From: Trichodesmium erythraeum IMS101
GTDB lineage: Bacteria; Cyanobacteriota; Cyanobacteriia; Cyanobacteriales; Microcoleaceae
Direction of reading: 5' to 3'
DNA: 32,000 bases
NCBI RefSeq assembly: GCF_000014265.1
Contig: NC_008312.1
Coordinates: 2,070,001 to 2,102,000 of the forward strand
Shown here: positions 3,515 to 31,636 of the stretch, piece after piece
How the letters are laid out: every line of letters starts with the position of its first letter
Position numbering within the stretch: the stretch's first letter is position 1
The notes under the pieces: model-generated
The model's input: the letters and a program-made list of their open reading frames with translations, nothing else
Database searches by the model: none
Told to the model about the DNA's origin: nothing
Made by a program: the position numbers and the translations under genes

Positions 3515-5386
3515 TTAGATAATTAAAATATCGCTGTTCTCAAGACCTGGATTACCGTTGAGACGAGCAATAGTAACAACATCGCTGTTATCATCTGGAC
3601 CACCACTACCACTAGGATCGTACTTTAATAAACCAGAATCTATTCTTTCATTTCCGTTTAGAGGCTCAGGCTCGTAGATAATTGTAGGATTAGTACTTCG
3701 AGCATCATCGTTGCTATAGTTATTGCCTGGGTCAATAAGAACCAAATCAGCATTAGCAATTGTTGAACCTGCCTCAGAGTTGGCTAAATTAAATCCTTGA
3801 TCTCGAAGCAGTATTTTGTCGTCAGCAGTATCGAAATCTACAATAACACTATTTGGACTTTGGTCCTTACCATCCAAACCAAAATAAACGAAACTATCGT
3901 TTCCTGCACCACCAATTAATGAATCGCCTGTACTGTCAAGACCTCCTACAATATAGTCATCACCATCACCACCAATAATTGTATCTTTGCCACCACGTCC
4001 GAATATTGTGTCATTCCCTGCACCAGCAACAATACGATCATCTCCTTCGTCTGGGGAATCTTCACTGACTGAGTTACCACCAGTAATAGAGTCATTACCT
4101 CCTCCAGTAACTAGTGTGTCATTTCCTTTACCACCAGTAATAGTATTATTGCCGAAGGTATCTTGAATATTAAATCCTGATGTACTAGTTCCAACCGCAG
4201 CAATAGTATCGTTACCTCTGTTGTTCCCAATTAACTGATCGTTAGTTGATCCAAACTGGATAAAGTCATTGCCTGTACCACCATCGAAGAAGTTAGATAC
4301 ACCAGCACTAGTATTACCTAGTAAACTGTCATTACCTGCACCACCAATAAGGGTAATTTGAGCAGCATCAGTACCTGCAGCAGTAGCATTTATGGTGTCA
4401 TTACCTCCACCACCATCTCCCTTTGTGAATATACCACTAAGGGAGTCATTACCATCACCCCCGATCATTGTATCAGTTACATATCCCCCTACTAAGGTAT
4501 CGCTACCTGCACCACCATCCAATCTGTTTTGACCATCAGAACCTTCATCAGTAGACTTGCTTACAATAGAGTCATTACCTTCACCACCAATCAAAGTGTC
4601 CCTCGCACCTCGACCAATGAGAGTATCGCTACCCGCACCACCCTCTAGACTATTTCTACTATTATTATTCTCATCACTAGGAGATGGATCAAGCCCGCCC
4701 ATAATCGAATCATCACCTTCACCACCAAGTAGGGTAGACCTTTCTTCCGAGTTAGTGATTGTGTCATTACCTTTATCTCCACTTATAAAGACTCGACTAC
4801 CCGAAGAAATTAGTGTATCGTCCTCCTTACCACCATAGATAGTATCGCGATCACCAGACACCTTGACATAATCTTCGTTATTGTTTGCAGATATAAAATT
4901 AAACCCAGAATTTTCTGATGGAGTTGAGGTATCCCTATTAAGAATAGTATCATTACCTTTACCTCCATAAACAGTATCTCTCTCTGTTATGAAGAATCTA
5001 TCATTATCTCGATTGCCTGATAGATAGTTTCCTTCAATCAAACTTATGAGAGAGTCCTCCCCATTACCTCCATACAGGGTAGTTTGGGTAATAGCTTTTA
5101 AGGTATCATTGCCCTCATCTCCAAATCCAGTGCCTCCTGCTGCTCTGAAGTCTAAGGTATCATCTCCATTCCCCCCTTCAAGAGTGTCACCTTCACCAGA
5201 GTTGCCAATTCCAGCAGGCCCTCTGGACAGCAAAGTATCGTTTCCATTTCCACCTCTAATTAGACTACCTCCCAGGGTAGAACTTAATATTATGTCATCT
5301 CCACCAATAGCATTAATGGTATCAGGTTTCATCTGGTCTGATTGGTCCTGATCAAAGTTATTGTCTGCGTCACTTAATGTCACCAT
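3515..5386 (-). CDS. RTX / hemolysin-type calcium-binding repeat protein, 623 aa. Probably secreted or surface-associated.
   Basis: Roughly two dozen GGxGxDxUx nonapeptide repeats (GGNGNDTLL, GGKGNDTIL, GGEGDDSIM, GGAGSDTLI, GGDGDDYIV and others) spread along the protein. No N-terminal signal peptide, as expected for type I secretion substrates. A GAGGAG Shine-Dalgarno sits about 10 nt upstream of the ATG at 5386. Confidence 0.9.
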   Translation of the reverse strand: MVTLSDADNNFDQDQSDQMKPDTINAIGGDDIILSSTLGGSLIRGGNGNDTLLSRGPAGIGNSGEGDTLEGGNGDDTLDFRAAGGTGFGDEGNDTLKAITQTTLYGGNGEDSLISLIEGNYLSGNRDNDRFFITERDTVYGGKGNDTILNRDTSTPSENSGFNFISANNNEDYVKVSGDRDTIYGGKEDDTLISSGSRVFISGDKGNDTITNSEERSTLLGGEGDDSIMGGLDPSPSDENNNSRNSLEGGAGSDTLIGRGARDTLIGGEGNDSIVSKSTDEGSDGQNRLDGGAGSDTLVGGYVTDTMIGGDGNDSLSGIFTKGDGGGGNDTINATAAGTDAAQITLIGGAGNDSLLGNTSAGVSNFFDGGTGNDFIQFGSTNDQLIGNNRGNDTIAAVGTSTSGFNIQDTFGNNTITGGKGNDTLVTGGGNDSITGGNSVSEDSPDEGDDRIVAGAGNDTIFGRGGKDTIIGGDGDDYIVGGLDSTGDSLIGGAGNDSFVYFGLDGKDQSPNSVIVDFDTADDKILLRDQGFNLANSEAGSTIANADLVLIDPGNNYSNDDARSTNPTIIYEPEPLNGNERIDSGLLKYDPSGSGGPDDNSDVVTIARLNGNPGLENSDILII

Positions 5387-11008: not shown

Positions 11009-14000
11009 TCACACTCTACAAAAGTAAGCTTCTTGGAATATTTGACCGTAAGTTTCAGTCATTTCTGCAAAGTTATTTAATGACTCCAATACATATTTAG
11101 CATTAGTAGCAAATTTATGACGTAACTCTTCATCTATCAATAAAGACGTCAAAACATTTGCTAATTCTTCTGGGTTTTCAGGAGTATAGAATAAACCGTT
11201 AATATTTGGCTTGACTTGTTCAACTATGCCAAAAACTGGAGTAGTAACTATAGGTAAACTATAAGACATTGCTTCTAATATTACTCTGGGGAAACTTTCT
11301 ATGCGAGAAGTACAAACAAATATATCTGCTGCTTGATAATATTTTGCTGTTTCTGGAGTTTCTCCTACTATTTCTACTCTTTGTTGAATTTCTTCTGGTA
11401 AGTTTTTGACAAGCTCGTGTAATTTTAAGCTGTAAAGGTTGGGGCGATCACCTACTAGAAAACATTTAATTTTTTGTCTTTCTTCTTCTGGCATAAATGA
11501 TAGGGCTCTTATTAAGTCATGTTGACCTTTCCTTTCACAGACAGTACCTAATAATAGAATAACTATTTCATCTTCTTTTACTCCTAAAACTGACCTTGCT
11601 TCTTGTCTAGACCATTTAGCGCTGGCTTTTTTTAATAATTCTAAATCTAGTCCATTATGAATGACTGTAAAATTGTGATGACTATTTAAAGGAAGATACC
11701 TATTTCGAGTAGCATCAGAAACAAAAATTATGCGATAAGGATAACGGAAACATTCTAATGCTCTGGCAGCTATCTCATTTCCAAAACGATTAAAATAAGT
11801 TTGCCAAGGTTCACTTTCATGCACATTCCAGACACTGGGAATATTTAACATTTGAGCCACATCTACCATAAAAAAATTTTCTAAAGTATTGATATACATC
11901 ACATCAATATTTAGAGATTTTATTTCTTGAGCAAAAGTAGTTAAAGCTGTATCATAAGCATGTCTTTCGTAAATATGTTCTAGAGGATTATCTTTAACAA
12001 TAACTTGAATATTTTGTTGTTGATAAATTTCTCTTAACTCCCCATCATTTACGGAAAATATTATTGGTTCAACAATTCCATCTTTTGCTAACTTTAGAGC
12101 TATTTCTAATTGATGAAGTGGGGCACCAGTTAGGTCTAAAGAATTACTACACATCAATATTTTAATTCTGGGAAAAGCTTCTTTTTGAGAAGTATAGAAG
12201 TTTTCTGTACTATAACTAATCTGATTATTTATTTCTGATTCATTTGGATAATTTTTCTCTAATGTCTGATTATTTATTTCTGACTCTTTATCAGATTTAT
12301 CGACTTTTACTTGAGTATTTATTTCCGGCTCTTTCTTAGAACTACCTGAATTCATAAAAACTTCTGGCTTTTGACTTCTGACTTCTAAATTTCTAATAAA
12401 ATATCTTCTCGGTTGAATTTGAAAACAATCACTTTCTAGAGACAAATGAGGACTATAAAACCCATCTATCATCTGAGAATATTTCCTACGATAATTTGCC
12501 TCTTCTTGAGGATTATCAGAATAACCCCGACTCGTTCCTTCCTTATGAATTAATTCAGCATCTGCACAATAAACCGAACGATAACCACTTTTTAAAAGTC
12601 GATAACCATAGTCAGCATCATTATAAGCAACAGCAAAATTTTCCTCATCAAAACCACCTAATTCTAAAAATAATTTTCGGGGAGTTAACATACAAGCTGC
12701 GGTTACTGCCGAATAATTTTTTGAAACAAACGCTTGGGAAAGATAACCCCTATTTTCACTATGTAATAATTTAAAAGCATGACCTGCTAAACCATGGTGT
12801 AAACCATGAATTACACCAGCATGTTGAATTCTTTTATCCGGATAAATCAACTTAGCACCCACCGCACCGACTCCAGGAATTTTTGCATATCCCATCATTT
12901 GACTTAACCAGTAGGGAGAAATAATTTCTGTGTCATTATTTAGAAATAGAATATACTCAGTTTTTACCTGTTCGACAGCGCGGTTGTTTATAGCAGCAAA
13001 ATTAAATTTTCCATCAGTATTTTTCATCGGAAAAACTAATATATTATCTTCCCCAGAATACAAACATTTTAAACCTGCCAAATATTCTAAAGTTTCAGGT
13101 TCATCACTTTCATTATCAATCACAAAAATTTGATAATTCTGATAGGTTGTCTTTCTCAAAGACTCCACACAAGCTTTCAATAACTTAACCTGATTTTTCG
13201 TTGGAATAATAATAGTTACTGAGTCACCTTGATCGGGAAAAGTTGGTTTAAAAATTCCTAACTTTTCCCGCACTGCCCAGTCTGGTTGATAAATATTTCC
13301 TGCCACACCTCGACGAATTAAACTTTCTTGAAGTGCTTTTTGACCTGCTAGAAAACTTTTCGGTTTTTCCCCTCCAGAAATAGCAGTCGAACCTGGAGTT
13401 GTTCGCCAATGATATAACACTAAAGGTAAATGTCCGACTTGACGAGAAATTTCTGTTGCTCTTAAAGCAAAATCATAATCTTGAGAACCTTCAAAACCAA
13501 TTCTAAATCCTCCTATTTTGTCGAAAATTTCTTTTCTCACTACACACAAATGACCTATATACATATAGGAAAGTAATAATTCTGGAGAATATTCTGGTTT
13601 AAATTGAGGGTCGAATCTTTTGCCTTCCGTACTAATTTTATCGTCATCGGAATAAAGAAAATCTATCTCTGAATTTTGACTTATATATAAAGCAACTTCC
13701 CCCAAAGCATCCGGAGTAAGTTCATCATCATTATCCAAAAAGAGAAGAAAATCTCCCGTGGCCAATTCGGCGGCGGAATTAGTCGCAGCACTAATATTGC
13801 CATTTTCAGAGCGGAATGTAAGTTTAATACGGGAATCAGTCTTAGCTCTTTCTGTCAGAATTTCCCGAATTTTCGGATTACTACTACAATCATCGGCTAT
13901 ACAAAATTCCCAATTTTGGTATACTTGATTTAGTACACTGGATATTCCCTGATGCAAAAATTTTAGAGGAGGATCATAAACTGGCATAACCACAGAAATT

Positions 14001-16984
14001 TTTGGCAAAGGAGTCCGACAACTTTCTAAACGGGATATTAAATATTGACGGGAGCGATCGCCCCAGTTATTTACTGCCAACCAAGCATCATAAACATCTA
14101 CAGTTTCTGGTAGGACAAACCCAGGGGGAAGCAATAAATCTCCCCCTTGTTTTTGCTGCTGTCTATATATTGCTAATATTTGTCGGGCAATACTAGGTAA
14201 TTCTGAAGGTAGGGGGATGATGCGACCTAATCTTTGTTTTCTTTCGGAAATTCGTTTTTGAATAGCTTGAGTAAATTTGGATAATTGCCGAAATTTATCT
14301 TTAGCTTTTTCCCAAAAACCATAACGTTTTAGTTGCAAAACTTCTGAGCAAGGAAAACCAACTATTTCCCCACTTTCCAAATATGCTTCTAAACTAACTT
14401 GCCATTTTCCGGGTGGAAGTTCAACGGTTACTTCAAAGCCACTATGGCCACTTCCTACCCAATTTGGGAAAATTTCCTCTACATCTTTCCGACGCAAACC
14501 ATAAGCGCAGTCTACAGAAATATCCCCATATTTAAGAACTAATTTGGTAATTTTCTCTTCTCGATGGCAACACCAACCAGCAAATAAAATTACTCCCTCC
14601 CTTTGTTGCCAGTTTGTGGGAGCATCAAAATTTGCTTCGACGGTAGATATTGATATGGGGTAGGTTACCAATTCATGCCACTTTCCTTTCTTTTCTTCTA
14701 CTTCAAGTATTAATTGGTAATTTCCTGGGGAAAGTTGTACAGATATTTGAAAGCCAGAATTTTGAGCAGTAGAAATATCATTATATTGTTGGGCAACATC
14801 TGGTCGTGGGATACCATACTTACCAAAAAAAACTTCGGTTCCTACTCTGGCACGAATATTTTGGATCTTGAGAATACTATTGTGGAAACACCAACCTACT
14901 ATTTCTATTTGGGAGTTGGAAATTTTCCAATTAATAGGGGAGTCGATAGAAAAAATGAAGCGCCCTCGTAAATTTTTCAGTTTCTTTTTTAGTTTTCCTT
15001 TCAAACTAAACCACTTTTCTCGTAGTTTCCAGAATTTGGAAGATTTCATCCCAGAAATTTCTGCCCTAAGCATTTCTGTTTCGTAGTGTTGAGCATCTAA
15101 TTGAGCTTGAGTTTGTTGGAGAGTGGCTTGAGTTTCTTGGAGAGTGGTTTGAGTTTCTTGGAGAGTGGTTTGAGTTTCTTGGAGAGTGGTTTGAGTTTCT
15201 TGGAGAGTGGTTTGAGTTTCTTGGAGAGTAGCTTGAGTTTCTTGGAGAGTGGCTTGAGTTTGTCCCAATACTCCTTGAGTTTGCCCTAATTCTGTTTCCA
15301 GGAATTGAATTTTATTTTGAGATTCTAATAATTTTACCTGAGTACCATCGAGTAATCTTTGAGCTTCTCCGAATTCTGTTTCTAGGAATTGAATTTTATT
15401 TTGAGATTCTAATAATTTTATCTGAGTACCATCGAGTAATCTTTGAGCTTCTCCAAATTCTGTTTCTAACAGTTGAATTTTAGTTTGAGACTCTTGTAAT
15501 TTCAGAATATTGCCATTAAGTCGTAGTGTAGTCTGACCTAACTTAGTTTCTAATATTCCAATTTTTTCCTGAGACTCTCCTAACTTAATTTGATTTCTCT
15601 CAAGTTTCATTTGACTTTGCCCAAAGTCAGTTTCTACTCCTAATAATTTTTTCTGAGATTCAGTAAATTTAATCTGAGTACCTTCTAGTTGAACTTGAGT
15701 TTTTCCTAATTCTGTTTCTAAACTAAATATTTTGACTAAAGCTTCTTTAAACCTAGTTTTTGAGTTATTAAATTGTGTCTGAGTTTGCCCTAAGTCTACT
15801 TCTAATCTAATAATTTTCTGTTGAGACTCTTGTAATTTTGTTTGATTATTTTCCAGTTGAGATTGAGTCTGCCCTAGTGTTCTTTCTAATGTGACTACTT
15901 TAGTTTGAGATGCTTGTAAATTTTTTACTTTACCTTCGAGTTGAACTTGAGTTTTACCTAATTCTATTTCTAGTAATTCTATCTTTTTACTAGACTCTTC
16001 GAGCTTAACTGACCTAATATTAATTTGTTGCTGAGTTTCACCTAATTCGGATTCTAATTTTCCTACCTTTTTTTGTGCTTCTTTAAATATTTTTTGCCAT
16101 TTTTCTACATCTGTTTCTAAACTACTAACTTGTTTTTCTAAACATCGAATATTGAACCAATCCCTAAACTCCCATAATTCTGATTCACTTTTAACCTTCG
16201 ACTCTTGGATGTTGACCTCTAAATCTCCACCTATGCCATTTTTTTCTAGTTGCTGATAAGTTTCTAATGTTTCTGGAAAATATTTTTCTATGAGACTAGG
16301 TTTATTGGTTTGGCTAATGTCTTTCACCAATAATGATTCAGCAAAAATCTCAGGAGAAGGTGCTGGTAAATTCATTTCAAATTTTTCGTTAACTGCCTGG
16401 ATAAAGCTTTCAGGATCTCTACCAATAATATCAACTTTACCTATTAAACATTTTGCTGAACATTGTTGATAAAAGTCTAATATTCTCTGATTGTAATTCA
16501 ACCACATTTTTACAGCTATTTCTGGTTGATCCAATAACTTTTTATCTGTACTTCGTCGATAAAGAGAGTCTACTACTTCCCAAGGAGAACGATAAACAAA
16601 AATAAATTTAGCATCGGGCAATAACTTTAACCAAAAGTTTAAAAATAATGTAGTCCTAGGGTCTTTCCATCCCCATATTTTGTGAGATTTTTCATTTTCT
16701 TCTTGACGATTTTTTATAAGTTTTCTTGCTATTTTTAAGTTTGGCTTCTTGACTACAATTTCTTGAGTTTCTAAGTTACTACCGAGGTCATCTATATGTT
16801 GCGACCGCAATATTTTTTTATGGAGTTCTACAAACTCAATATCTTCAAAATGCCCTCTAATATTTCCCAATTCAGGACCGAGTAATTTTTCTCCTATATT
16901 CACTCCTAAACTTTGAAATAAAGAAGCAGTTAAGGAGGTTCCTGAACGGTGCATTCCGGCAATAATCAAAGCTGTTGTTTTCAT
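11009..16984 (-). CDS. Giant multidomain glycan-assembly protein, 1991 aa. Domain order: N-terminal sulfotransferase, long repeat-built coiled coil, basic amphipathic segment, two duplicated ~100-aa modules, GT2, GT2, low-complexity linker, GT4.
   Basis: Single uninterrupted 5976-nt ORF with ATG at 16984 and AAGGAGG 8 nt upstream. The approximate domain map follows.
- Sulfotransferase at nt 16984-16235 (AGMHRSGTS P-loop; WGWKDPR...FVYRSPWEVVDS).
- Coiled coil at nt ~16190-15040.
- Duplicated modules at nt ~14960-14330.
- GT2-1 at nt ~14000-13385 (ISVVMPVYD...LFLDNDDEL).
- GT2-2 at nt ~13219-12520 (VTIIIPTKN...LFLNNDTEI).
- Linker at nt ~12400-12180.
- GT4 at nt ~12165-11012 (IKILMCSNSLDLTGAP...FPRVILEAMSYSLPIVTT). 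Confidence 0.9.
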   Translation of the reverse strand: MKTTALIIAGMHRSGTSLTASLFQSLGVNIGEKLLGPELGNIRGHFEDIEFVELHKKILRSQHIDDLGSNLETQEIVVKKPNLKIARKLIKNRQEENEKSHKIWGWKDPRTTLFLNFWLKLLPDAKFIFVYRSPWEVVDSLYRRSTDKKLLDQPEIAVKMWLNYNQRILDFYQQCSAKCLIGKVDIIGRDPESFIQAVNEKFEMNLPAPSPEIFAESLLVKDISQTNKPSLIEKYFPETLETYQQLEKNGIGGDLEVNIQESKVKSESELWEFRDWFNIRCLEKQVSSLETDVEKWQKIFKEAQKKVGKLESELGETQQQINIRSVKLEESSKKIELLEIELGKTQVQLEGKVKNLQASQTKVVTLERTLGQTQSQLENNQTKLQESQQKIIRLEVDLGQTQTQFNNSKTRFKEALVKIFSLETELGKTQVQLEGTQIKFTESQKKLLGVETDFGQSQMKLERNQIKLGESQEKIGILETKLGQTTLRLNGNILKLQESQTKIQLLETEFGEAQRLLDGTQIKLLESQNKIQFLETEFGEAQRLLDGTQVKLLESQNKIQFLETELGQTQGVLGQTQATLQETQATLQETQTTLQETQTTLQETQTTLQETQTTLQETQATLQQTQAQLDAQHYETEMLRAEISGMKSSKFWKLREKWFSLKGKLKKKLKNLRGRFIFSIDSPINWKISNSQIEIVGWCFHNSILKIQNIRARVGTEVFFGKYGIPRPDVAQQYNDISTAQNSGFQISVQLSPGNYQLILEVEEKKGKWHELVTYPISISTVEANFDAPTNWQQREGVILFAGWCCHREEKITKLVLKYGDISVDCAYGLRRKDVEEIFPNWVGSGHSGFEVTVELPPGKWQVSLEAYLESGEIVGFPCSEVLQLKRYGFWEKAKDKFRQLSKFTQAIQKRISERKQRLGRIIPLPSELPSIARQILAIYRQQQKQGGDLLLPPGFVLPETVDVYDAWLAVNNWGDRSRQYLISRLESCRTPLPKISVVMPVYDPPLKFLHQGISSVLNQVYQNWEFCIADDCSSNPKIREILTERAKTDSRIKLTFRSENGNISAATNSAAELATGDFLLFLDNDDELTPDALGEVALYISQNSEIDFLYSDDDKISTEGKRFDPQFKPEYSPELLLSYMYIGHLCVVRKEIFDKIGGFRIGFEGSQDYDFALRATEISRQVGHLPLVLYHWRTTPGSTAISGGEKPKSFLAGQKALQESLIRRGVAGNIYQPDWAVREKLGIFKPTFPDQGDSVTIIIPTKNQVKLLKACVESLRKTTYQNYQIFVIDNESDEPETLEYLAGLKCLYSGEDNILVFPMKNTDGKFNFAAINNRAVEQVKTEYILFLNNDTEIISPYWLSQMMGYAKIPGVGAVGAKLIYPDKRIQHAGVIHGLHHGLAGHAFKLLHSENRGYLSQAFVSKNYSAVTAACMLTPRKLFLELGGFDEENFAVAYNDADYGYRLLKSGYRSVYCADAELIHKEGTSRGYSDNPQEEANYRRKYSQMIDGFYSPHLSLESDCFQIQPRRYFIRNLEVRSQKPEVFMNSGSSKKEPEINTQVKVDKSDKESEINNQTLEKNYPNESEINNQISYSTENFYTSQKEAFPRIKILMCSNSLDLTGAPLHQLEIALKLAKDGIVEPIIFSVNDGELREIYQQQNIQVIVKDNPLEHIYERHAYDTALTTFAQEIKSLNIDVMYINTLENFFMVDVAQMLNIPSVWNVHESEPWQTYFNRFGNEIAARALECFRYPYRIIFVSDATRNRYLPLNSHHNFTVIHNGLDLELLKKASAKWSRQEARSVLGVKEDEIVILLLGTVCERKGQHDLIRALSFMPEEERQKIKCFLVGDRPNLYSLKLHELVKNLPEEIQQRVEIVGETPETAKYYQAADIFVCTSRIESFPRVILEAMSYSLPIVTTPVFGIVEQVKPNINGLFYTPENPEELANVLTSLLIDEELRHKFATNAKYVLESLNNFAEMTETYGQIFQEAYFCRV
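15101..15262 (-). repeat. In-frame 21-bp tandem repeat, about 7.5 units, encoding TLQETQ[TA] heptads
   Basis: Units start at 15116, 15137, 15158, 15179, 15200, 15221 and 15242, with a partial unit at 15101-15115. Units 2-5 are identical (ttggagagtggtttgagtttc on the + strand). Units 1, 6 and 7 differ by 1-2 nt. Confidence 0.95.
15288..16127 (-). repeat. In-frame 84-bp (28-codon) tandem repeat array, about 10 units, diverging progressively
   Basis: Adjacent units 15288-15371 and 15372-15455 match at 81 of 84 nt. Units further upstream are recognisable mainly at protein level (LETELGKTQVQLEG..., LERTLGQTQSQLEN..., LESELGETQQQINI...). Confidence 0.85.
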
Positions 16985-17003: not shown

Positions 17004-19568
17004 TTAAGCAAAGTTTGCAAAATTCCAAGATACTAATACTTCTTGTTCTGGTGGTAAAGTGATTCTATCAGTAATTACAGTTTTTAATCTGACAATTACT
17101 TCTCCTGAATATTCAGGAATTTCTATTTCTATCAAACCATAATTAGTTTTACCAAATATATTTTTATTGTTTAGTGGCAGAGTTTTTTGTACTAAAATTT
17201 CTCCATTTTTGTTATTAACAATCTCAATTTTACAGCCAATAGAATAAGTACCTAACGGTTCTATTTGTGGATAAGCTCTAAATACTTTTTGACCTTCTAT
17301 TTGAAATTTCATCTCAGTATGATATTGATGACTCTCACAGAATACTTTTTCAGATAAATTTCCAGTTTTTACATCATTAGATAAAGGTATGTTTCCTACT
17401 TGTGTTGTTAGTTGCTCCTTTGTTTGACTATCAGACAATATTTTCTCTGACAAATTTTCACCTTCTCCATTATCAGATATGAGTATTTTTTCTACTTCTA
17501 TCTCTTTTCCTACTATTTCTTCCGTAGCATTTCCCACATTTTCTGTCTTTAGAAAATTATTAATTTCTAAATTATTATTTAGGAGTTCTAAATTGATATC
17601 TCCTGTTATTTTTTTGGTAATATTTTCCGCATCTTTCTTTTTACTAAAATTATTAATGTCTGATTTCTGACTTCTTACTTCTGACTTAATATTAATAGGT
17701 TGAGCAACTAAACTTCCAGAAATTGGTTTTTGTAAAATATATAAATCTTGACCATTTGCTAAATTACTTTGAGGAAATCTTTTAATGTGTTTAAACATAG
17801 AAAATATTTCCTGGTAAGCTGTTGGTGTATGAACTGCTGCAATAGTATGTTGACCTTGACCATCTGTTTCTCCTTGATGGTCAAGATATAAAAATAATCC
17901 CTCTTCACCAATACTATACATTTCTGCTATATGAGAATTTCCACTGCGAAAAACATCATAAACTATGGGGAAAAATTGAGGTCCGTGAAGAGTCATAAAT
18001 AATATTCCACCTGGTCGTAAAACTCGATAAATATCCCACGCCCAAAGATGTTGTAAATCTAAACTTAGATGAGTAAATACTGAGATAGCATTAATTAAAT
18101 CAAACTGATTATTTTCAAAAGGTAACGGTGGCTGAATATCGTTATTTTTGACAGTGGCAAATTTAATATTTTCTTGACACCATTCAGCACATTCGGCAAA
18201 AACGTCACAACCAAATAGTTTTTGATTAGGGGAAAGTTCAGGTTCAAATGCCATTAAGTAACGCCCTACCCCACAACCAAAATCTAGTATTTTCTCAAAT
18301 TGATTAAAATTAAATCCTGCGGTTTGAAGATAACTTTTTACGGTATATCTTAGGTCATCAAATGAACTAATAAAAGCTTTGATACTCGGGTTGCCACTTA
18401 TTCTTAGTAATAGATCATTTGGTGGTATTAATGCGATGTTATGAACGGGATAAATATTAACTACTCGCTCCAAATTAAAATTATTAATAATTTTAACTAG
18501 TATAATGTCATTTGCTGATAAATTTTGAGTATTAATAGTAGATGACCATTGATATTTTTGAGTTTTATTTTCAGGCTTTGGGTAACAGCTTTCTACTTCG
18601 TTTCCATTGATTAAAAATGATATTTTTTCTACCTTTTCTTCTGGATTAATATCTGCTGCCCATCCCTCTAAATAAATATCTCCTGTAACTGTCATTTGAA
18701 TTTTTTTGCAACCTCCATCAGGATGACAATGAAAGTTTAATAATTCATCTATTTGTTCCCCAACTTGTTCCTTATTACTTCTTCTTGCTTCCTTCTTTCT
18801 GATAATATATAAGTCATGATGTCCACAAAGACCTCTTTGAATTCGATGCCATTTTGCCTTTCCCTGAGTAACTTTTTGAATTACTTTAGCTACCCATTTT
18901 TCTCCCACATAAGTAACTCCATAATCTTCAGTTTTCAGAAAAAGACTTTCACTTTCTGGAGTAAAATAAATTTCTTCTGCTTCTACGTCTGCCTCTATAG
19001 TCATTAAAGATAAATCATGAGTACTGAAGATTAATATACCATTTTCAGTCAAGCTACTATATAATTTTTCTAACCAACTAGTAAAAGTTTTTTGGGGAGT
19101 GTGACTAAAAAAAGAACAAGCAAAAATGCAGTCAAATTTTTGATTTATTTGATAGTTTTCTGGATAATTAGTTGAAACTATCCCTTCGACACCAAACTGT
19201 TGTTTTTGAAATTCTACTGCTTTGGGATAAATATCCGAAACCCATATTTTATTGTTTGGTATTTCTTGAACCAAAAACCTACTAAAACGACCATAACCAC
19301 TAGCAAAGTCTAGAAAAGAGGATATATTTTCAAATCCATCAAAATACCATTCTACAATTTGTTTTACTGCATCTAAAATTCTTTTTCCATTAGAAAAATA
19401 TCGTAGCAATGCTTCATCTTTCCTCCCGTCTGTATTTTTCAAAGCATAGAGATACATTTCATCTTGTGGATGAATTATCACGTTTATTTTGTCAGATTTT
19501 TTAGTTTGGTCTTGAATAAATTGATCTATAATTAACTTGTTATTGAAATCTATTTTTTCAGGGTTCAT
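17004..19568 (-). CDS. Double class I SAM-dependent methyltransferase, 854 aa, with a low-complexity linker and a ~130-aa C-terminal domain of unknown function
   Basis: There are two separate motif I signatures. FLDFASGYGRFSRFL lies at nt ~19282-19318, and ILDFGCGVGRYLMAF at nt ~18255-18295, each followed by methyltransferase motifs. The tracked ORF starts at a TTG (19625); the first ATG at 19568 (MNPEKIDF...) is preferred. Confidence 0.85.
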   Translation of the reverse strand: MNPEKIDFNNKLIIDQFIQDQTKKSDKINVIIHPQDEMYLYALKNTDGRKDEALLRYFSNGKRILDAVKQIVEWYFDGFENISSFLDFASGYGRFSRFLVQEIPNNKIWVSDIYPKAVEFQKQQFGVEGIVSTNYPENYQINQKFDCIFACSFFSHTPQKTFTSWLEKLYSSLTENGILIFSTHDLSLMTIEADVEAEEIYFTPESESLFLKTEDYGVTYVGEKWVAKVIQKVTQGKAKWHRIQRGLCGHHDLYIIRKKEARRSNKEQVGEQIDELLNFHCHPDGGCKKIQMTVTGDIYLEGWAADINPEEKVEKISFLINGNEVESCYPKPENKTQKYQWSSTINTQNLSANDIILVKIINNFNLERVVNIYPVHNIALIPPNDLLLRISGNPSIKAFISSFDDLRYTVKSYLQTAGFNFNQFEKILDFGCGVGRYLMAFEPELSPNQKLFGCDVFAECAEWCQENIKFATVKNNDIQPPLPFENNQFDLINAISVFTHLSLDLQHLWAWDIYRVLRPGGILFMTLHGPQFFPIVYDVFRSGNSHIAEMYSIGEEGLFLYLDHQGETDGQGQHTIAAVHTPTAYQEIFSMFKHIKRFPQSNLANGQDLYILQKPISGSLVAQPINIKSEVRSQKSDINNFSKKKDAENITKKITGDINLELLNNNLEINNFLKTENVGNATEEIVGKEIEVEKILISDNGEGENLSEKILSDSQTKEQLTTQVGNIPLSNDVKTGNLSEKVFCESHQYHTEMKFQIEGQKVFRAYPQIEPLGTYSIGCKIEIVNNKNGEILVQKTLPLNNKNIFGKTNYGLIEIEIPEYSGEVIVRLKTVITDRITLPPEQEVLVSWNFANFA

Positions 19569-19866
19569 ATTTTTATATTTTAATTTGTTTCTCTCGTTTT
19601 TTTTACCATATAAAATATCTAACAATCAAGGTTAAGGTTTAAGAAAGAGGTAGTACAATTTAAAAAAAATATTTTTATCGTAGAAGTTTTATGAACAAAC
19701 ATCTACAATTTTTAATTAATTAATGGGTAAATGTAATATTTTTCAAGTTCCTTTTAATTGGGAATAAAAAAATATTCCCTATAGGTATTTGAAGTATAAG
19801 GATTCAGTAGTTGCTACTAATAAATAATAACTGAAATAATCTGATTTTTTCTACCCTATTTCTATT

Positions 19867-21285
19867 TTAAATAGATTCAATTTTGGCTTTATTGTTCAGA
19901 GTATTATGCTCAATGTTTAAGCTAGGTTCTATTAAAAAGTCAATGACACCTGTACCGCATGAATCACTATAATGTTGGACTTTAAACATTGCAATGTCAA
20001 TGCAACGGGATAAATAGGTTAGATGATCGTTTGCCATTCCAACAACTCCAGCATTTAAAAAATATACACCAGGATTTAGTAAACATTTGAACCTAAATTT
20101 AACTATAACTATTTGTTGTGCTGCAATATATTCTACTGATTTAGTATAACCATGTAAAGATGCTCCTCCTAACTCAAAACCACTGAGAGTTTTTATTAAC
20201 ATTCCAAACCTAATTTTGGATGTTGAATTAATAAATTTTACTCTATATGTATAGTAATATTCCCGGCGGTTAACTAAATGATTTACCCTTTTACCTTCCA
20301 AAGTAATAATATGGGGGTCAATAATTTTTGCTCCTTTATCAGGATAATGTATGGTATTTGAGGGTATCATATCTGGATCATAAATTTCTTCGTATTCTAT
20401 TGATTGTGCAATCTGATATTGATCTAGATTTTCACTATTTATTGCCGATTTAGATGGTGATTTATCTGTATTTTGATCATCAAATAAATCTTGAATGGTT
20501 AAATTAGGAATTTGGCGAATTTCTTCTCTTATTGATGGAATTTTATCTGGAAAAGCATAGATTAATTTCTGATATTTAGAAACTACATATTTAGGAGTAT
20601 GATAAAGCAACATTTCCCCATGATCCATCAAAATTGCTGAGTCACAAAGCTGAACCACTGTTGAAGCAGCATGAGACACAAATAAAATTGTACCTCCTCT
20701 TTCTTGAATGTCTTGAATACGTGCAAAACATTTTCTTTGAAATGCTTCATCTCCTACTGAAAGTGCTTCATCAACTACTAAAATATCTGGATCTACACTG
20801 GTAGCTACAGCAAATCCTAATCTAATAAACATTCCGCTAGAATAAGTTTTTACAGGTTGGTCAATAAAATCACCAATATCGGCAAAACTAGCGATTTGGT
20901 CAAATTTTGCTTCTATTTCTGATGTTTTTAATCCTAATAGTTGACCGTTAAAAAAAACGTTTTGTCTCCCTGTAAATTCTGGATTAAATCCACTACCAAG
21001 TTCTAGTAGTGCAGAAATTCTCCCTTGAATTTTTACTTTTCCTGTTGTTGGCGTTAGAGTTCCCACAATTATTTGTAAAAGAGTACTTTTTCCTGAACCA
21101 TTCCGTCCTACAATTCCTAAAGTATGCCCTTTTTCTATTTCTATATTTATATTTTGTACTGCCCAAAATTCATCAGCACAACTTTTTCCAGGGAGTAAAA
21201 TTTCTTTTAAACGGTCTACAGGATGTTGGTACCGTTTAAAACATTTAGAAACATTTTGTAGTGAAATTACAGTTTCAGGTATCAT
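19867..21285 (-). CDS. wzt: Polysaccharide-export ABC transporter ATP-binding protein, Wzt type, 472 aa, with a ~220-aa C-terminal glycan-binding-type extension
   Basis: Walker A GRNGSGKST, ABC signature YSSGMFIRLGFA, Walker B ILVVDEALSVGD and H-loop FVSHA all lie in the first ~240 aa. The remainder (nt ~20535-19870) has the beta-rich pattern of Wzt C-terminal domains (...YRVKFINSTSKIRFGMLIKTLSGFELGG...LNPGVYFLNAGV...). Confidence 0.9.
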   Translation of the reverse strand: MIPETVISLQNVSKCFKRYQHPVDRLKEILLPGKSCADEFWAVQNINIEIEKGHTLGIVGRNGSGKSTLLQIIVGTLTPTTGKVKIQGRISALLELGSGFNPEFTGRQNVFFNGQLLGLKTSEIEAKFDQIASFADIGDFIDQPVKTYSSGMFIRLGFAVATSVDPDILVVDEALSVGDEAFQRKCFARIQDIQERGGTILFVSHAASTVVQLCDSAILMDHGEMLLYHTPKYVVSKYQKLIYAFPDKIPSIREEIRQIPNLTIQDLFDDQNTDKSPSKSAINSENLDQYQIAQSIEYEEIYDPDMIPSNTIHYPDKGAKIIDPHIITLEGKRVNHLVNRREYYYTYRVKFINSTSKIRFGMLIKTLSGFELGGASLHGYTKSVEYIAAQQIVIVKFRFKCLLNPGVYFLNAGVVGMANDHLTYLSRCIDIAMFKVQHYSDSCGTGVIDFLIEPSLNIEHNTLNNKAKIESI

Positions 21286-21664: not shown

Positions 21665-22519
21665 TCATAAAACATCGGCAAAAGCAGGACGTAATTTTTG
21701 ATAAACCCACAAGCCAAAATAAAATATTAGTGTAGACATTAAAGTAGCAATTCCTAATTCTCCCCAGTGTTGAATTTCTCCTACTAATATTAGGTCACGA
21801 TATACTTCGACTATCGCTGTTAAAGGATTACACCAAAATACCCAAACTCTCCAATTTTCTGGAATTACTGATGCAGGATATACTATTGGTGTAACATAAA
21901 ACCAAAGATTAATAATTACTCCTAAAGTCTGTGGAATATCCCGTAAAAATACTGTTAATCCGGCAGTAAAATATCCTAAACCTGCTGTTAATAAAAGTTG
22001 AGGTATAAATACTATAGGTAGTAGCCATAATGTTTGATTTATTACCCCAGATGATATATAAAGCATTCCTATTAAAGCTATTAACCCAAATGTACTTTCT
22101 AGAAATGTTGAAAGAATAGGAACTAAGGGTAATAAACTGAGTGGAAAGACTAATTTTTTAACTAAATTGGGCTGTCTAATTACACATCCAGAAGCTTGAG
22201 TTAATCCATTAGTGAAAGCTAGCCAAGCTATTAATCCTGCAAATAGCCATAGTCCAAAGGTTAGCTTACTATCTTCTGGTAATCCTCTGAGGCTCAGTTT
22301 AACTTTAAGAATAATTGAGAAGACGTAGGTATAAATTAAAAGTTGGGATAGCTGATTGAGTAGTGGCCATAAATTTCCAAGAATTGAGCCTTTATACCTG
22401 GCCTCTAAATCCCTTCGTACTAATGTGAATAATAAGTTTAAATTAACTAACCAATCAGTATTTACCACGGTTAGCCAATTACTAACTCTGCTGGTTTTGC
22501 GGATAATACTTTTCATCAT
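21665..22519 (-). CDS. wzm: Polysaccharide-export ABC-2 type permease, Wzm type, 284 aa
   Basis: The N-terminal RRDLEARYKGSILGNLWPLLNQL motif is characteristic of ABC-2 (Wzm/KpsM/TagG) permeases and is followed by about six hydrophobic segments. It sits upstream of wzt on the same strand. Confidence 0.9.
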   Translation of the reverse strand: MMKSIIRKTSRVSNWLTVVNTDWLVNLNLLFTLVRRDLEARYKGSILGNLWPLLNQLSQLLIYTYVFSIILKVKLSLRGLPEDSKLTFGLWLFAGLIAWLAFTNGLTQASGCVIRQPNLVKKLVFPLSLLPLVPILSTFLESTFGLIALIGMLYISSGVINQTLWLLPIVFIPQLLLTAGLGYFTAGLTVFLRDIPQTLGVIINLWFYVTPIVYPASVIPENWRVWVFWCNPLTAIVEVYRDLILVGEIQHWGELGIATLMSTLIFYFGLWVYQKLRPAFADVL

Positions 22520-30568: not shown

Positions 30569-31636
30569 TTACAGCAAAATTGGCTTAAGTTGTGGTATGG
30601 GGCGAATTGTACTTTCTATCGTAATCCCATTCCGTAAAGCTAACAGTAATCCTGTCGCTTCCATATAGCTATTTACACGATATATTTTATGCCCCTGAGT
30701 TTCAATTTGTAATTTTTCAGGAGTAATATCGTAATTCGTAGTATTATCTTTCACTAAGATTATAGGAACCCCTTGGTCTAAAGACGCTAAGAAAGGTATA
30801 TTTCCTACAGTTGTTTCTGGCATTACCACTGCGGAAATATTTTCAACAGATATCCTAGTTTCACCTGCTGCTAAAGGAGTATCAAATTTTACCGGGCGAG
30901 GAGAATTGATTAAACCATTTAGAGGAGAACAAACATAAGCACTGGAAATTAATTCGGCTCCATCCCTAGGATCTACTAATTTACCAAATCCTGTATGTTC
31001 CCACTCCAATAACAAGGGAGCATGGGCAGCAGTAAAAGGATAGAAATTAGTAGTCATGTGGGTCAGAATTGCTTCTGCACCACCCCAGGGATTGGCAATA
31101 GATTCTCCTCGGTATTAAGCTTGACGTACTTTGTCATCTACTTGCAAAGTGGTCATTAAAGCTACTGCCCTAACATCAGATTTTTCCACTACATCCAAAG
31201 CCTTCATCAACTCGTCCATCCCTTTAAATTCCCCGGAAGCATTTCCATACTGGGAATAGGTACATTCAGTTTCAACAGGACCACCTGTTACCACTACAGG
31301 GTCAATATTAATACCTCCTACAGCACGCAAGCCATTGAGAGCATTCAGAACATTATTTAAAAATCTTTCATCTTTGGGCTTTTCGATAATTGCTGCAATA
31401 TTTTTGCGCTTTTCTGGAATTACCCCAATATTGCCCAGGAGCAACTGACAGATTAAATTACCTTCTAGGTACAGAACATTATCCTGAGCGAAATAGATAT
31501 CTGATGCTGTAACTGCATTGGGATTAGTGATTAGATAGTCACAAGCAGTTGCTAAAAGATTAGTACTAGGAGTAGCATCTCCGGCAAAACCTCCTATTTC
31601 AGCTCTTACTCCTGTAGGAATAATACTAACTGCCAC
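30569..31636 (-). pseudogene. DUF3326-like conserved protein gene (would be 355 aa) interrupted by one in-frame TAA
   Basis: The two tracked ORFs (31115..31636 and 30569..31057) share one reading frame (1068 nt = 356 codons). The only interruption is TAA at 31115-31117. The 19 codons between the ORFs read YRGESIANPWGGAEAILTH, which looks protein-like. The N-terminus VAVSIIPTGVRAEIGGFAGDA resembles the family I remember as DUF3326; that assignment is from memory and is not verified. The start is GTG at 31636. Confidence 0.55.

Follow-up and report, generated by a model that had tools for sequence, protein, structure and literature searches.

The window, by which we mean the whole 32,000-nucleotide stretch of DNA analyzed, contains a gene for a multidomain protein of 1991 aa together with genes for the ATPase and permease of a Wzm/Wzt ABC transporter. 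From N to C terminus, the protein comprises a sulfotransferase domain, a coiled coil, two Ig-like domains, two GT2 glycosyltransferase modules, a linker, and a GT4 module. The genes and the protein's main parts are as follows.

11009..16984, minus strand: multidomain gene encoding the 1991-aa protein (ORF, Pfam, homologs)
11096..13996, minus strand: glycosyltransferase modules GT2, GT2, and GT4 (Pfam and PDB sequence matches)
14327..14959, minus strand: two tandem Ig-like beta-sandwich domains, aa ~676-886 (AF2 pLDDT 79.5)
14969..15046, minus strand: conserved basic/aromatic helix (..MKSSKFWKLREKWFSLKGKLKKKLKNLRG..) at the coil's near end, modeled as a helix by AF2
15089..16129, minus strand: coiled-coil region, aa 286-632, 347 aa measured between conserved anchors
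16175..16984, minus strand: sulfotransferase-fold domain, aa 1-~270 (Pfam Sulfotransfer_3, E=1.7e-7)
17004..19625, minus strand: dual methyltransferase, immediately upstream and in the same orientation (Pfam; gene order conserved)
19867..21285, minus strand: Wzt ABC-transporter ATPase with a C-terminal Wzt_C domain (Pfam ABC_tran, E=3.6e-22)
21665..22519, minus strand: Wzm ABC-2 permease (Pfam ABC2_membrane, E=6.7e-23)

The N-terminal domain, modeled by AF2 with a pLDDT of 78.8, matched sulfotransferases or sulfotransferase-family enzymes in all of the best 29 Foldseek matches in the PDB (29/29). It contains two conserved stretches that we take to be the PAPS-binding loops: in GMHRSGTS, G, H, R, S, G, T, and S are invariant and M is conserved in at least 90%, and in YRSPWEVVDS, R, P, W, E, V, D, and one S are invariant, with Y, the other S, and the second V conserved in at least 90%. 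By analogy with known systems, this domain, at the far end of the coil, is a candidate chain-capping enzyme. Directly C-terminal to the coil lies the conserved SKFWKLR helix, a candidate membrane or polymerase docking element; no transmembrane-like segment was found anywhere in the 1991-aa protein. The basic-helix motif also occurs in 48 of 150 distant relatives of the N-terminal domain, usually 7-26 aa short of the C terminus, and many relatives consist of sulfotransferase, coil, and a short C-terminal motif and nothing more. Foldseek matched the Ig-like region chiefly to proteins with tandem Ig-like domains or other beta-sandwiches, at low TM-scores. The Pfam matches place the glycosyltransferase modules at aa 997-1158 (GT2), aa 1256-1485 (GT2), and aa 1608-1963 (GT4), and PDB sequence matches to the region include the GT2 modules of chondroitin and heparosan synthase and GT4 enzymes; together the modules are the presumed glycan polymerase.

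The Wzt protein carries at aa 312-449 the carbohydrate-binding Wzt_C domain (PF14524, E=3.3e-24). Pfam further detects a free sulfotransferase and several methyltransferases in the cluster. The same gene order was found at three loci, on another Trichodesmium contig, in Okeania, and in Microcoleus vaginatus PCC 9802 (a 6.7-Mb record), and methyltransferases flank the gene in all genera examined, the window having two of them in addition to the free sulfotransferase. Among nine cluster proteins scanned, the 1991-aa protein is the only one with coiled-coil-type Pfam matches, and the dual methyltransferase at 17004..19625 has none.

Repeat structure of the coiled coil

Heptads run uninterrupted through the 347 aa of the coil (over about 350-400 residues). 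Position 1 (a) is hydrophobic in 49 of 49 heptads, and position 4 (d) is mostly T or S, with L in about every fourth heptad. Pfam matches to the coil are of tropomyosin and crescentin type, and both coil ends are helical in AF2 models. Presuming a continuous coil and an assumed 0.148 nm per residue, its length would be ~51 nm. Its repeats are arranged as follows.

15458..16129, minus strand: 28-aa units 1-8, aa 286-509, diverged (34-57 of 84 nt identical between units)
15290..15457, minus strand: 28-aa units 9 and 10, aa 510-565, near-identical (81/84 nt)
15101..15289, minus strand: array of nine 21-bp heptads, aa 566-628 (Tandem Repeats Finder, 7.5 copies, 96%)
15137..15220, minus strand: four identical 21-bp units, LQETQTT x4, each TTGGAGAGTGGTTTGAGTTTC (direct count)

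The first-pass annotation of the window had described ten or so 84-bp units followed by a 21-bp array, and the protein bears this out: aa 286-565 form ten 28-residue units, in register and free of indels (consensus LGxTQxxLxxxQxKLxESQxKIxxLETE), followed by nine heptads at aa 566-628 and then LDAQ. Tandem Repeats Finder identified the 21-bp array at 15105-15261 (7.5 copies, 96% matches, score 272) and an 84-bp array at 15288-15502 (2.6 copies, 92% matches, score 360), which are the strongest tandem repeats within the window. A direct recount gave the same values as the annotation for the two adjacent 84-bp units (15288-15371 and 15372-15455, identical at 81 of 84 bases) and for the four identical 21-bp units. 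The 28-residue periodicity exceeds chance by a wide margin: at lag 28, residue identity is 0.489 compared with 0.103 ± 0.016 over 2000 shuffles, and units 1-8 taken by themselves give 0.408 compared with 0.093 ± 0.020 when shuffled. The annotation's description of the tandem repeats as near-identical applies to units 9 and 10 and the heptad end and overstates the similarity of units 1-8. Units 9 and 10 are 96% identical, most other pairs agree at 45-57 of 84 nt, and the first unit agrees with the others at 34-43 nt, sharing 6-9 of 28 residues with them; near-identity is thus limited to ~325 bp at the glycosyltransferase-proximal end of the coil. The longest perfect runs are 81 nt at lag 21 and 37 nt at lag 84.

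Coil length among relatives

Measured from anchor to anchor, the coils of 121 homologs reaching down to about 55% identity are between 179 and 452 aa long, and 119 of them fall into one modulo-7 residue class; a single small non-heptad indel was found. Alleles differ by whole units, as expected from the earlier proposal that repeat gain or loss would keep both frame and coiled-coil register: whole units gained or lost change the coil by 7 or 28 residues at a time (roughly 1 or 4 nm at 0.148 nm per residue) and leave the reading frame and heptad phase intact. This quantization is a direct consequence of the 21- and 84-bp unit size, and by itself it is no proof of selection. It is specific to the coil, since another repeat-rich stretch of the protein, a linker of between 34 and 625 aa, shows differences of 2-3 aa and follows no modulo-7 rule. 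Among distant relatives, the spacing between two conserved anchors is in the window's modulo-7 class in 7 of 16.

The comparison of copy number across strains and metagenome-assembled genomes that the annotation had called for found 14 repeat-number combinations in Trichodesmium homologs (0-3 copies of the 28-aa unit and 1-11 heptads), some with 100% identical flanks, in alleles mostly from short-read metagenome assemblies, where individual copy numbers may be wrong because some contigs end within the repeats. Copy number therefore varies among strains and metagenome-assembled genomes, contrary to the invariance that the annotation had named as speaking against its proposal. The variable module spans 11 to 137 aa across Trichodesmium, and repeat number differs even between proteins from metagenome assemblies that are identical over 1,074 flanking residues. 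The exact protein of the window, present on a 7,750,108-bp contig, belongs to a Trichodesmium erythraeum cluster with three alleles: two units and nine heptads, three units and six heptads, and three units and five heptads, the last found in five genomes. The window and a 98.4%-identical allele (L001) are one 84-bp and three 21-bp units apart, with breaks at unit boundaries, and the window's unit 9 is a hybrid between two L001 units, a signature of crossover.

Turnover had been placed at the C-terminal end of the coil, and the relatives agree: units 1-8 correspond one to one across genera, and only the C-terminal arrays vary. Compared with Dapis, each of units 1-8 matches the same-numbered unit best, giving a clean diagonal; compared with Okeania, the best match is mostly the same-numbered unit, with units 4 and 7 tying with or preferring another. 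Changes in copy number are confined to unit-9-type copies and heptads, at the end nearest the glycosyltransferases. At least 4-5 near-identical 28-aa copies are visible in Okeania-type relatives, and 84-bp arrays at 87-90% identity occur independently in Okeania, another marine relative, and Microcoleus. Most homologs of the Microcoleus group have a coil of 186 aa, and exactly this length is found in 54 distinct clusters at 90% identity, chiefly from Microcoleus and its close relatives. The units of these homologs likewise resemble one another; given this constancy despite similar units, length appears to matter.

A candidate ruler for glycan length

One strategy of glycan assembly is recognized by its characteristic marker, a coiled-coil ruler with a terminator at the far end, and in WbbB and ORF6-O7 the terminator, coil, and glycosyltransferases are fused in one protein (PMC11231755). 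The window protein has the same order of capping enzyme, coil, and glycosyltransferases in one polypeptide as WbbB (Klebsiella pneumoniae O12) and ORF6 (serotype O7), which are likewise encoded with Wzm and Wzt, and it shares with ORF6-O7 an Ig-like or carbohydrate-binding-like domain. The far-end domain of the known systems is a Kdo transferase or a methyltransferase-kinase, whereas here it has a sulfotransferase fold, and the window's coil differs from theirs in consisting of tandem 28-residue repeats that vary in number from strain to strain. Cyanobacterial orthologs exist for the N-terminal methyltransferase region of ORF6-O7 (PMC11231755). WbdD (Escherichia coli O9a and K. pneumoniae O3) is a stand-alone terminator; its coiled-coil ruler is trimeric, and its C terminus bears a membrane helix (PMC3482155, PMC5082667). 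The coil holds the terminator away from the membrane, as the window's layout would hold the candidate terminator. When heptads are inserted into or deleted from the WbdD coil by engineering, modal O-antigen length rises or falls (PMC5082667). The basic helix after the window's coil and the stand-alone sulfotransferase-coil-motif relatives mirror the WbdD layout, whereas the WbdD polymerase is a separate protein and the window's glycosyltransferases are in the same polypeptide. The WbdD cap is methyl-phosphate, unlike the candidate sulfate, and the window's coil would be ~50 nm long (calculated at 0.148 nm per residue) compared with 20 nm quoted for WbdD (PMC5082667). Within the literature searched, outside which the key primary papers lie, nothing described the WbdD coil as naturally polymorphic in repeat number.

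By layout rather than terminator homology, the window protein would fit the WbdD/WbbB/ORF6-O7 type. The hallmarks present are Wzm and Wzt, a Wzt_C domain predicted to bind the cap, a long coil, and glycosyltransferase modules at its near end. PDB sequence searches with the N-terminal domain and the glycosyltransferase region gave no homology to the WbdD kinase/methyltransferase or WbbB GT99, the matches being sulfotransferases and generic GT2/GT4 enzymes only. The first-pass premise that the coil is a ruler thus stands as far as layout goes, and its basis is layout only: the sulfotransferase is at the far end, the glycosyltransferases are at the near end, and Wzm and a Wzt_C-bearing Wzt adjoin.

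We lean, at somewhat better than even chances, toward the reading that the repeat-built coil is a naturally tunable ruler for glycan length in a capped, ABC-exported system. If WbbB, ORF6-O7, and WbdD are a guide, the glycosyltransferase end would sit at the membrane and extend a lipid-linked glycan, while the coil would keep the capping enzyme, here probably adding sulfate, ~50 nm off. Chains long enough to reach that enzyme would be capped, recognized by Wzt, and exported; if only such chains are exported, coil length would set modal chain length. Repeat changes, which may arise through replication slippage or unequal recombination between repeats, would shift glycan length in discrete steps. 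Since related strains differ by whole repeats, the probable ruler, a role drawn from layout, seems open to natural adjustment by whole steps of 7 residues, or about 1 nm. Counting against this reading are the missing homology to the WbdD and WbbB terminator domains, the free sulfotransferase and the methyltransferases of the cluster as other candidates for the cap enzyme, the prevalence of T or S at position d of the heptads, and the looser modulo-7 spacing in distant relatives.

Alternative explanations

The repeat numbers and their differences between genomes could reflect collapsed or mis-joined repeats, which we judge very improbable. Beyond the predominance of short-read metagenome assemblies among the alleles, such errors are suggested by several 577-aa metagenome-assembled-genome fragments that end within 84-bp units and by the protein P0148, which looks chimeric between clades. 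However, the presence of the exact protein on the 7.75-Mb contig makes a short-read artefact unlikely for the window's own repeats, the Microcoleus array lies on the 6.7-Mb record, and the same alleles recur in independent assemblies (three units and five heptads in five genomes). The identical tracts (81 nt at lag 21 and 37 nt at lag 84) are also short enough that we judge them spannable by reads and long k-mers, and the other clade's units can be told apart by sequence. A more serious, though still unlikely, alternative is that the coil only oligomerizes or scaffolds the enzyme, its length being without effect and the repeat differences being noise from slippage or recombination. This would accommodate the wide length range of the variable module within one genus, a quantization for which unit size alone accounts, the similarly wide drift of the other repeat linker, and the failure of distant relatives to keep one modulo-7 class. 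It is harder to reconcile with the 54 diverged clusters that hold exactly 186 aa despite recombination-prone units, with one non-heptad indel among 121 homologs compared with the 2-3-aa differences in the linker, and with the finding that coil length sets chain length in every characterized system of such layout (PMC11231755, PMC5082667).

A further possibility leaves the coil as a spacer or ruler and has the sulfotransferase sulfate along the chain or at a set distance, with a methyl or other cap made by a neighboring enzyme controlling export and length. The flanking methyltransferases and the window's free sulfotransferase speak for it, as do the methyl and methyl-phosphate nature of the established caps (PMC11231755) and our literature search, which found no paper on a sulfate cap. 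We nevertheless consider it quite improbable: coiled-coil-type Pfam matches are confined to this protein among the nine scanned, known systems have their terminator at the coil's far end (PMC11231755), and the many sulfotransferase-coil-motif relatives have the layout of the stand-alone terminator WbdD.

Returning to the tunable ruler, a bolder and rather doubtful extension is that, in nature, Trichodesmium and related cyanobacteria adjust how long a sulfate-capped surface polysaccharide becomes by gaining or losing whole heptads, their populations holding a ladder of glycan-length alleles that arise much faster than point mutations. Because all repeat changes are in frame, the contingency-type mechanism that the annotation had proposed would here be graded tuning rather than on/off switching. 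If true, this would to our knowledge be the first case in glycan assembly of a ruler adjusted in nature through repeats, and the first in which the carbohydrate-binding module of a Wzt recognizes a sulfate chain terminator. The streptococcal M protein and YscP, the injectisome needle ruler, are elongated proteins whose length variants likewise come from recombination among in-frame repeats within the gene, and the length of YscP sets the length of another structure. Those are surface or secretion-apparatus proteins, whereas the window protein is a cytoplasmic glycan-assembly enzyme that would measure a polysaccharide.

Anatomy and genomic context of the large protein

The strongest tandem repeats of the whole window are a 21-bp array and an 84-bp array detected with Tandem Repeats Finder. 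The coil repeats are coding on the minus strand and lie within a single open reading frame (ORF), which also encodes the other elements of the large protein listed here.

Features of the large gene (window positions)
11009-16984, minus strand: single ORF of 1991 aa, the large protein
15105-15261: 21-bp array, 7.5 copies, 96% matches
15288-15502: 84-bp array, 2.6 copies, 92%
14969-15046, minus strand: conserved basic/aromatic helix (SSKFWKLREKWF...), aa ~647-672, directly after the coil
14327-14959, minus strand: two tandem Ig-like beta-sandwich domains, aa ~676-886, between the coil and the first GT2
12176-12397, minus strand: low-complexity linker rich in S/E/I/N/Q/P, aa 1530-1603 (74 aa), between the second GT2 and GT4

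In the encoded protein the repeats form ten 28-residue units in perfect register (aa 286-565; consensus LGxTQxxLxxxQxKLxESQxKIxxLETE), and nine LQETQTT-type heptads lie directly C-terminal to them. Residue identity at a lag of 28 was 0.489 vs 0.103 ± 0.016 in shuffled sequences and was still 0.408 for the diverged units 1-8 alone. Base counting gave the same 81 of 84 matching nucleotides that the first-pass annotation had claimed for 15288-15371 vs 15372-15455, and upheld its claim that four successive 21-bp units (15137-15220) are identical. Its description of the 84-bp units as near-identical is right for units 9 and 10 but not elsewhere, where most pairs agree at 45-57 of 84 nt and pairs involving the weak unit 1 at fewer. 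A plus-strand gene beneath the repeats was rejected: the sole nearby plus-strand ORF of at least 80 aa (14714-14971; 85 aa) is outside the repeats, inside the large gene, and was treated as spurious.

Pfam matches in the large protein comprise Sulfotransfer_3 (aa 6-174; weak), coiled-coil-type matches (aa 279-644), two GT2 modules, and one GT4. The motifs GMHRSGTS and YRSPWEVVDS, which we take to be the two PAPS-binding loops of sulfotransferases, are invariant or almost so among 13 aligned N-domains. With an AlphaFold2 model of the N-domain (mean pLDDT 78.8), all of the best 29 PDB matches were sulfotransferases or sulfotransferase-family enzymes, including TPST, CurM, Stf9, and 3-OST, at modest TM-scores of 0.4-0.5. 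AlphaFold2 modeling also places a helical hairpin between the Ig-like pair and the first GT2, and runs the coil helix on through the conserved basic stretch. This post-coil helix may serve for docking to the membrane or the polymerase, comparably to the C-terminal region of WbdD; a membrane role is suggested by its conservation, and a hydrophobic-moment scan of the large protein did not pick it out. The large protein contains no transmembrane anchor, the highest 19-residue Kyte-Doolittle mean being 1.41, and PDB searches with its sequence gave no homology to the enterobacterial terminator/ruler proteins WbdD or WbbB. The linker before GT4 probably acts as a flexible tether.

The same strand carries, upstream of the large gene, genes for a dual methyltransferase, a Wzt ATPase with a Wzt_C domain (E=3.3e-24), and a Wzm permease, and downstream of the large gene are those for a free sulfotransferase, a methyltransferase, and a GT4 (Pfam). 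The core order Wzm, Wzt(Wzt_C), methyltransferase, large protein, methyltransferase, GT4 is kept in three other loci, from another Trichodesmium contig, Okeania, and a 6.7-Mb record of Microcoleus vaginatus PCC 9802. The start codon of the dual methyltransferase (17004-19625, minus strand) is uncertain: it is 873 aa long from a TTG start, and its ortholog on L001, a contig with another Trichodesmium allele, was called at 854 aa. At the end of the glycan cluster is a 623-aa RTX calcium-binding nonapeptide repeat protein (3515-5386, minus strand), which is adjacent in Okeania and absent from this position in Microcoleus; it was dropped as a candidate glycosylation target because the adjacency fails in Microcoleus. 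Elsewhere in the window, consecutive halves of DUF3326 (337 positions) occur in adjacent minus-strand ORFs, positions 204-335 at 30569-31057 and 2-165 at 31115-31636, which looks like a split or disrupted gene.

In-phase copy-number variation of the coil

A homology search retrieved 120 relatives, distributed over Trichodesmium, Dapis, Okeania, Kamptonema, Tychonema, and Microcoleus. Coil length was taken as the distance from one conserved anchor, where the N-domain ends, to another, where the post-coil region starts. This stretch is 347 aa in the window protein vs 179-452 aa in the relatives. The first-pass annotation had proposed that gain or loss of repeats would preserve heptad phase, and 119 of the 121 values fall into one modulo-7 class; the two exceptions are one anchor misfit and one single-residue deletion within a unit. 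Units 1-8 correspond one to one across genera. Every unit matches its Dapis counterpart of the same number best (19-27 of 28 residues); for Okeania this is true of most units, with units 4 and 7 tying or scoring higher with another unit. Length change is confined to the number of heptads and of copies of the near-identical unit-9 type. The copy-number variation that had been predicted was found in 14 combinations within Trichodesmium (0-3 units, 1-11 heptads), and the T. erythraeum cluster (above 90% identity) contains three alleles.

Alleles of the T. erythraeum cluster (unit-9-type units + heptads)
2+9: window
3+6: strain 21-75 and one metagenome contig
3+5: five metagenome-assembled genomes

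Close comparisons place the changes at the repeats themselves. The window and L001 are 98.4% identical in DNA across 6 kb; in the coil they are set apart by one 84-bp unit plus three 21-bp units, and these differences fall precisely on unit boundaries. Window unit 9 combines three 5′ diagnostic sites of L001 unit a with the 3′ site of L001 unit b, and such a hybrid is the trace expected if neighboring units had undergone unequal exchange. Some protein pairs differ in repeat number with 0 substitutions across 1,074 flanking residues, and Okeania, another marine relative, and Microcoleus each independently carry 84-bp arrays of 87-90% identity.

The same total coil of 347 aa arises from two compositions, 2+9 in the window (15101-15457) and 3+5 in P0127 and four other Trichodesmium genomes, which may be chance or may hint at selection on overall length. 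One homolog from the T. thiebautii-type cluster (P0148; 2130 aa) joins a coil end of the erythraeum type (three units and LQETQ heptads) to a C-terminal part of the thiebautii type, and represents a recombinant allele or else an assembly chimera from metagenome data.

A ruler model and its alternatives

It is the accepted view that ABC-transporter pathways fix polysaccharide length with coiled-coil rulers, and the coiled-coil ruler is a kind of system already known. ABC-transporter glycan assembly is characteristically marked by a terminator positioned at the distal end of a long coiled coil, and terminator, coil, and glycosyltransferases share a single chain in WbbB and ORF6-O7 (PMC11231755). 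The same source treats the ruler role of the coil as established for both WbdD of E. coli O9 and WbbB of K. pneumoniae O12. According to PMC5082667, WbdD forms a trimer whose coil measures 20 nm, and engineered insertions in this coil raise, and truncations lower, the modal chain length. All layout hallmarks of the WbdD/WbbB/ORF6-O7 kind are present in the window protein, but its chemistry at the far end is different.

By this analogy, we think it somewhat probable that the large protein is a repeat-adjustable ruler. Its glycosyltransferase end would polymerize a lipid-linked glycan at the membrane, chains long enough to reach the sulfotransferase some 50 nm away would be capped, and the cap would be recognized by Wzt_C and the chain exported. 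Within the two homogeneous arrays, slippage or unequal recombination could then lengthen or shorten the spacer in steps of ~1 nm per heptad or ~4 nm per 28-aa unit, with coil lengths taken at 0.148 nm per residue. The anatomy, the gene context, and the natural in-phase variation in copy number are observed; ruler function, sulfate capping, and an effect on the glycan are what we infer, as is any adaptive value.

The coil might instead be a neutral spacer, a reading that we regard as rather unlikely. The heptad quantization follows mechanically from unit sizes of 21 bp and 84 bp. It is nevertheless specific to the coil, since the internal control, the repeat-rich linker before GT4, follows no modulo-7 rule: in homologs it spans 34-625 aa, lengths can differ by 2-3 residues, and its tandem repeats have periods of 90, 93, and 135 bp. 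Coil length is also exactly 186 aa in 54 different 90%-identity clusters, mostly of Microcoleus and close relatives, and 179 aa in 13; the 186-aa clusters are constant in length although their 84-bp units also resemble each other, and this constancy is a sign that length matters. Universal modulo-7 spacing across distant family members proved only partly true (7 of 16 share the class of the window when anchors are set by crude motifs), and we do not claim selection on phase for the whole family.

Less likely again is a ruler coil whose far-end enzyme decorates the chain rather than terminating it, with a methyl cap added by a neighboring enzyme; literature searches for sulfotransferase terminators gave nothing relevant, and the conserved gene order includes methyltransferases on both sides of the large protein. 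That the differences in repeat number are assembly artefacts overall is very improbable. Some metagenome contigs do end within 84-bp units, a real caveat for individual alleles, but the exact window protein is encoded on a 7,750,108-bp contig, which makes the short-read artefact raised by the first-pass annotation very unlikely for the window repeats.

Neither a sulfotransferase as the far-end domain of a ruler nor a tandem-repeat-encoded ruler varying in copy number among close strains was found in the searchable literature, outside which lie the 2019 census of Mann et al. and the primary WbdD and WbbB papers. The alleles come from a marine nitrogen fixer of global importance and from its relatives, and form a natural series of putative rulers differing by 7 or 28 residues with otherwise identical or near-identical flanks. 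They make it possible to ask whether coil length and chain length are proportional in an unrelated system too, whether sulfate is a new capping chemistry, and whether populations use length to vary their surfaces, for instance in defense against phage or grazers, in colony formation, or in metal binding by sulfated glycans.

The wider sulfotransferase-coil family

A profile of the N-domain matched 1,152 clusters at E <= 1e-30 (of 1.84 billion representatives); no description of this large sulfotransferase-coil family was found in the searchable literature. Among the best 150 distant relatives (P0158-P0307), a strict custom screen found at least 70 heptad-patterned residues in 50, and the SKFWKLR motif of the post-coil helix is present in 48, usually 7-26 residues from the C-terminus. 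The relatives that end in this motif are stand-alone sulfotransferase-coil-motif proteins with the same layout as WbdD. Coils are strongly self-similar in 18 of the 100 proteins of at least 400 aa, and the repeat period is 7, 14, 28, 35, or 56 residues in 17 of the 18, indicating that building coils from tandem repeats with heptad-multiple periods is a recurrent habit of the family. In one relative, P0190, a perfect 14-aa repeat (LHQTQVELEQSNQQ) occupies most of the coil.
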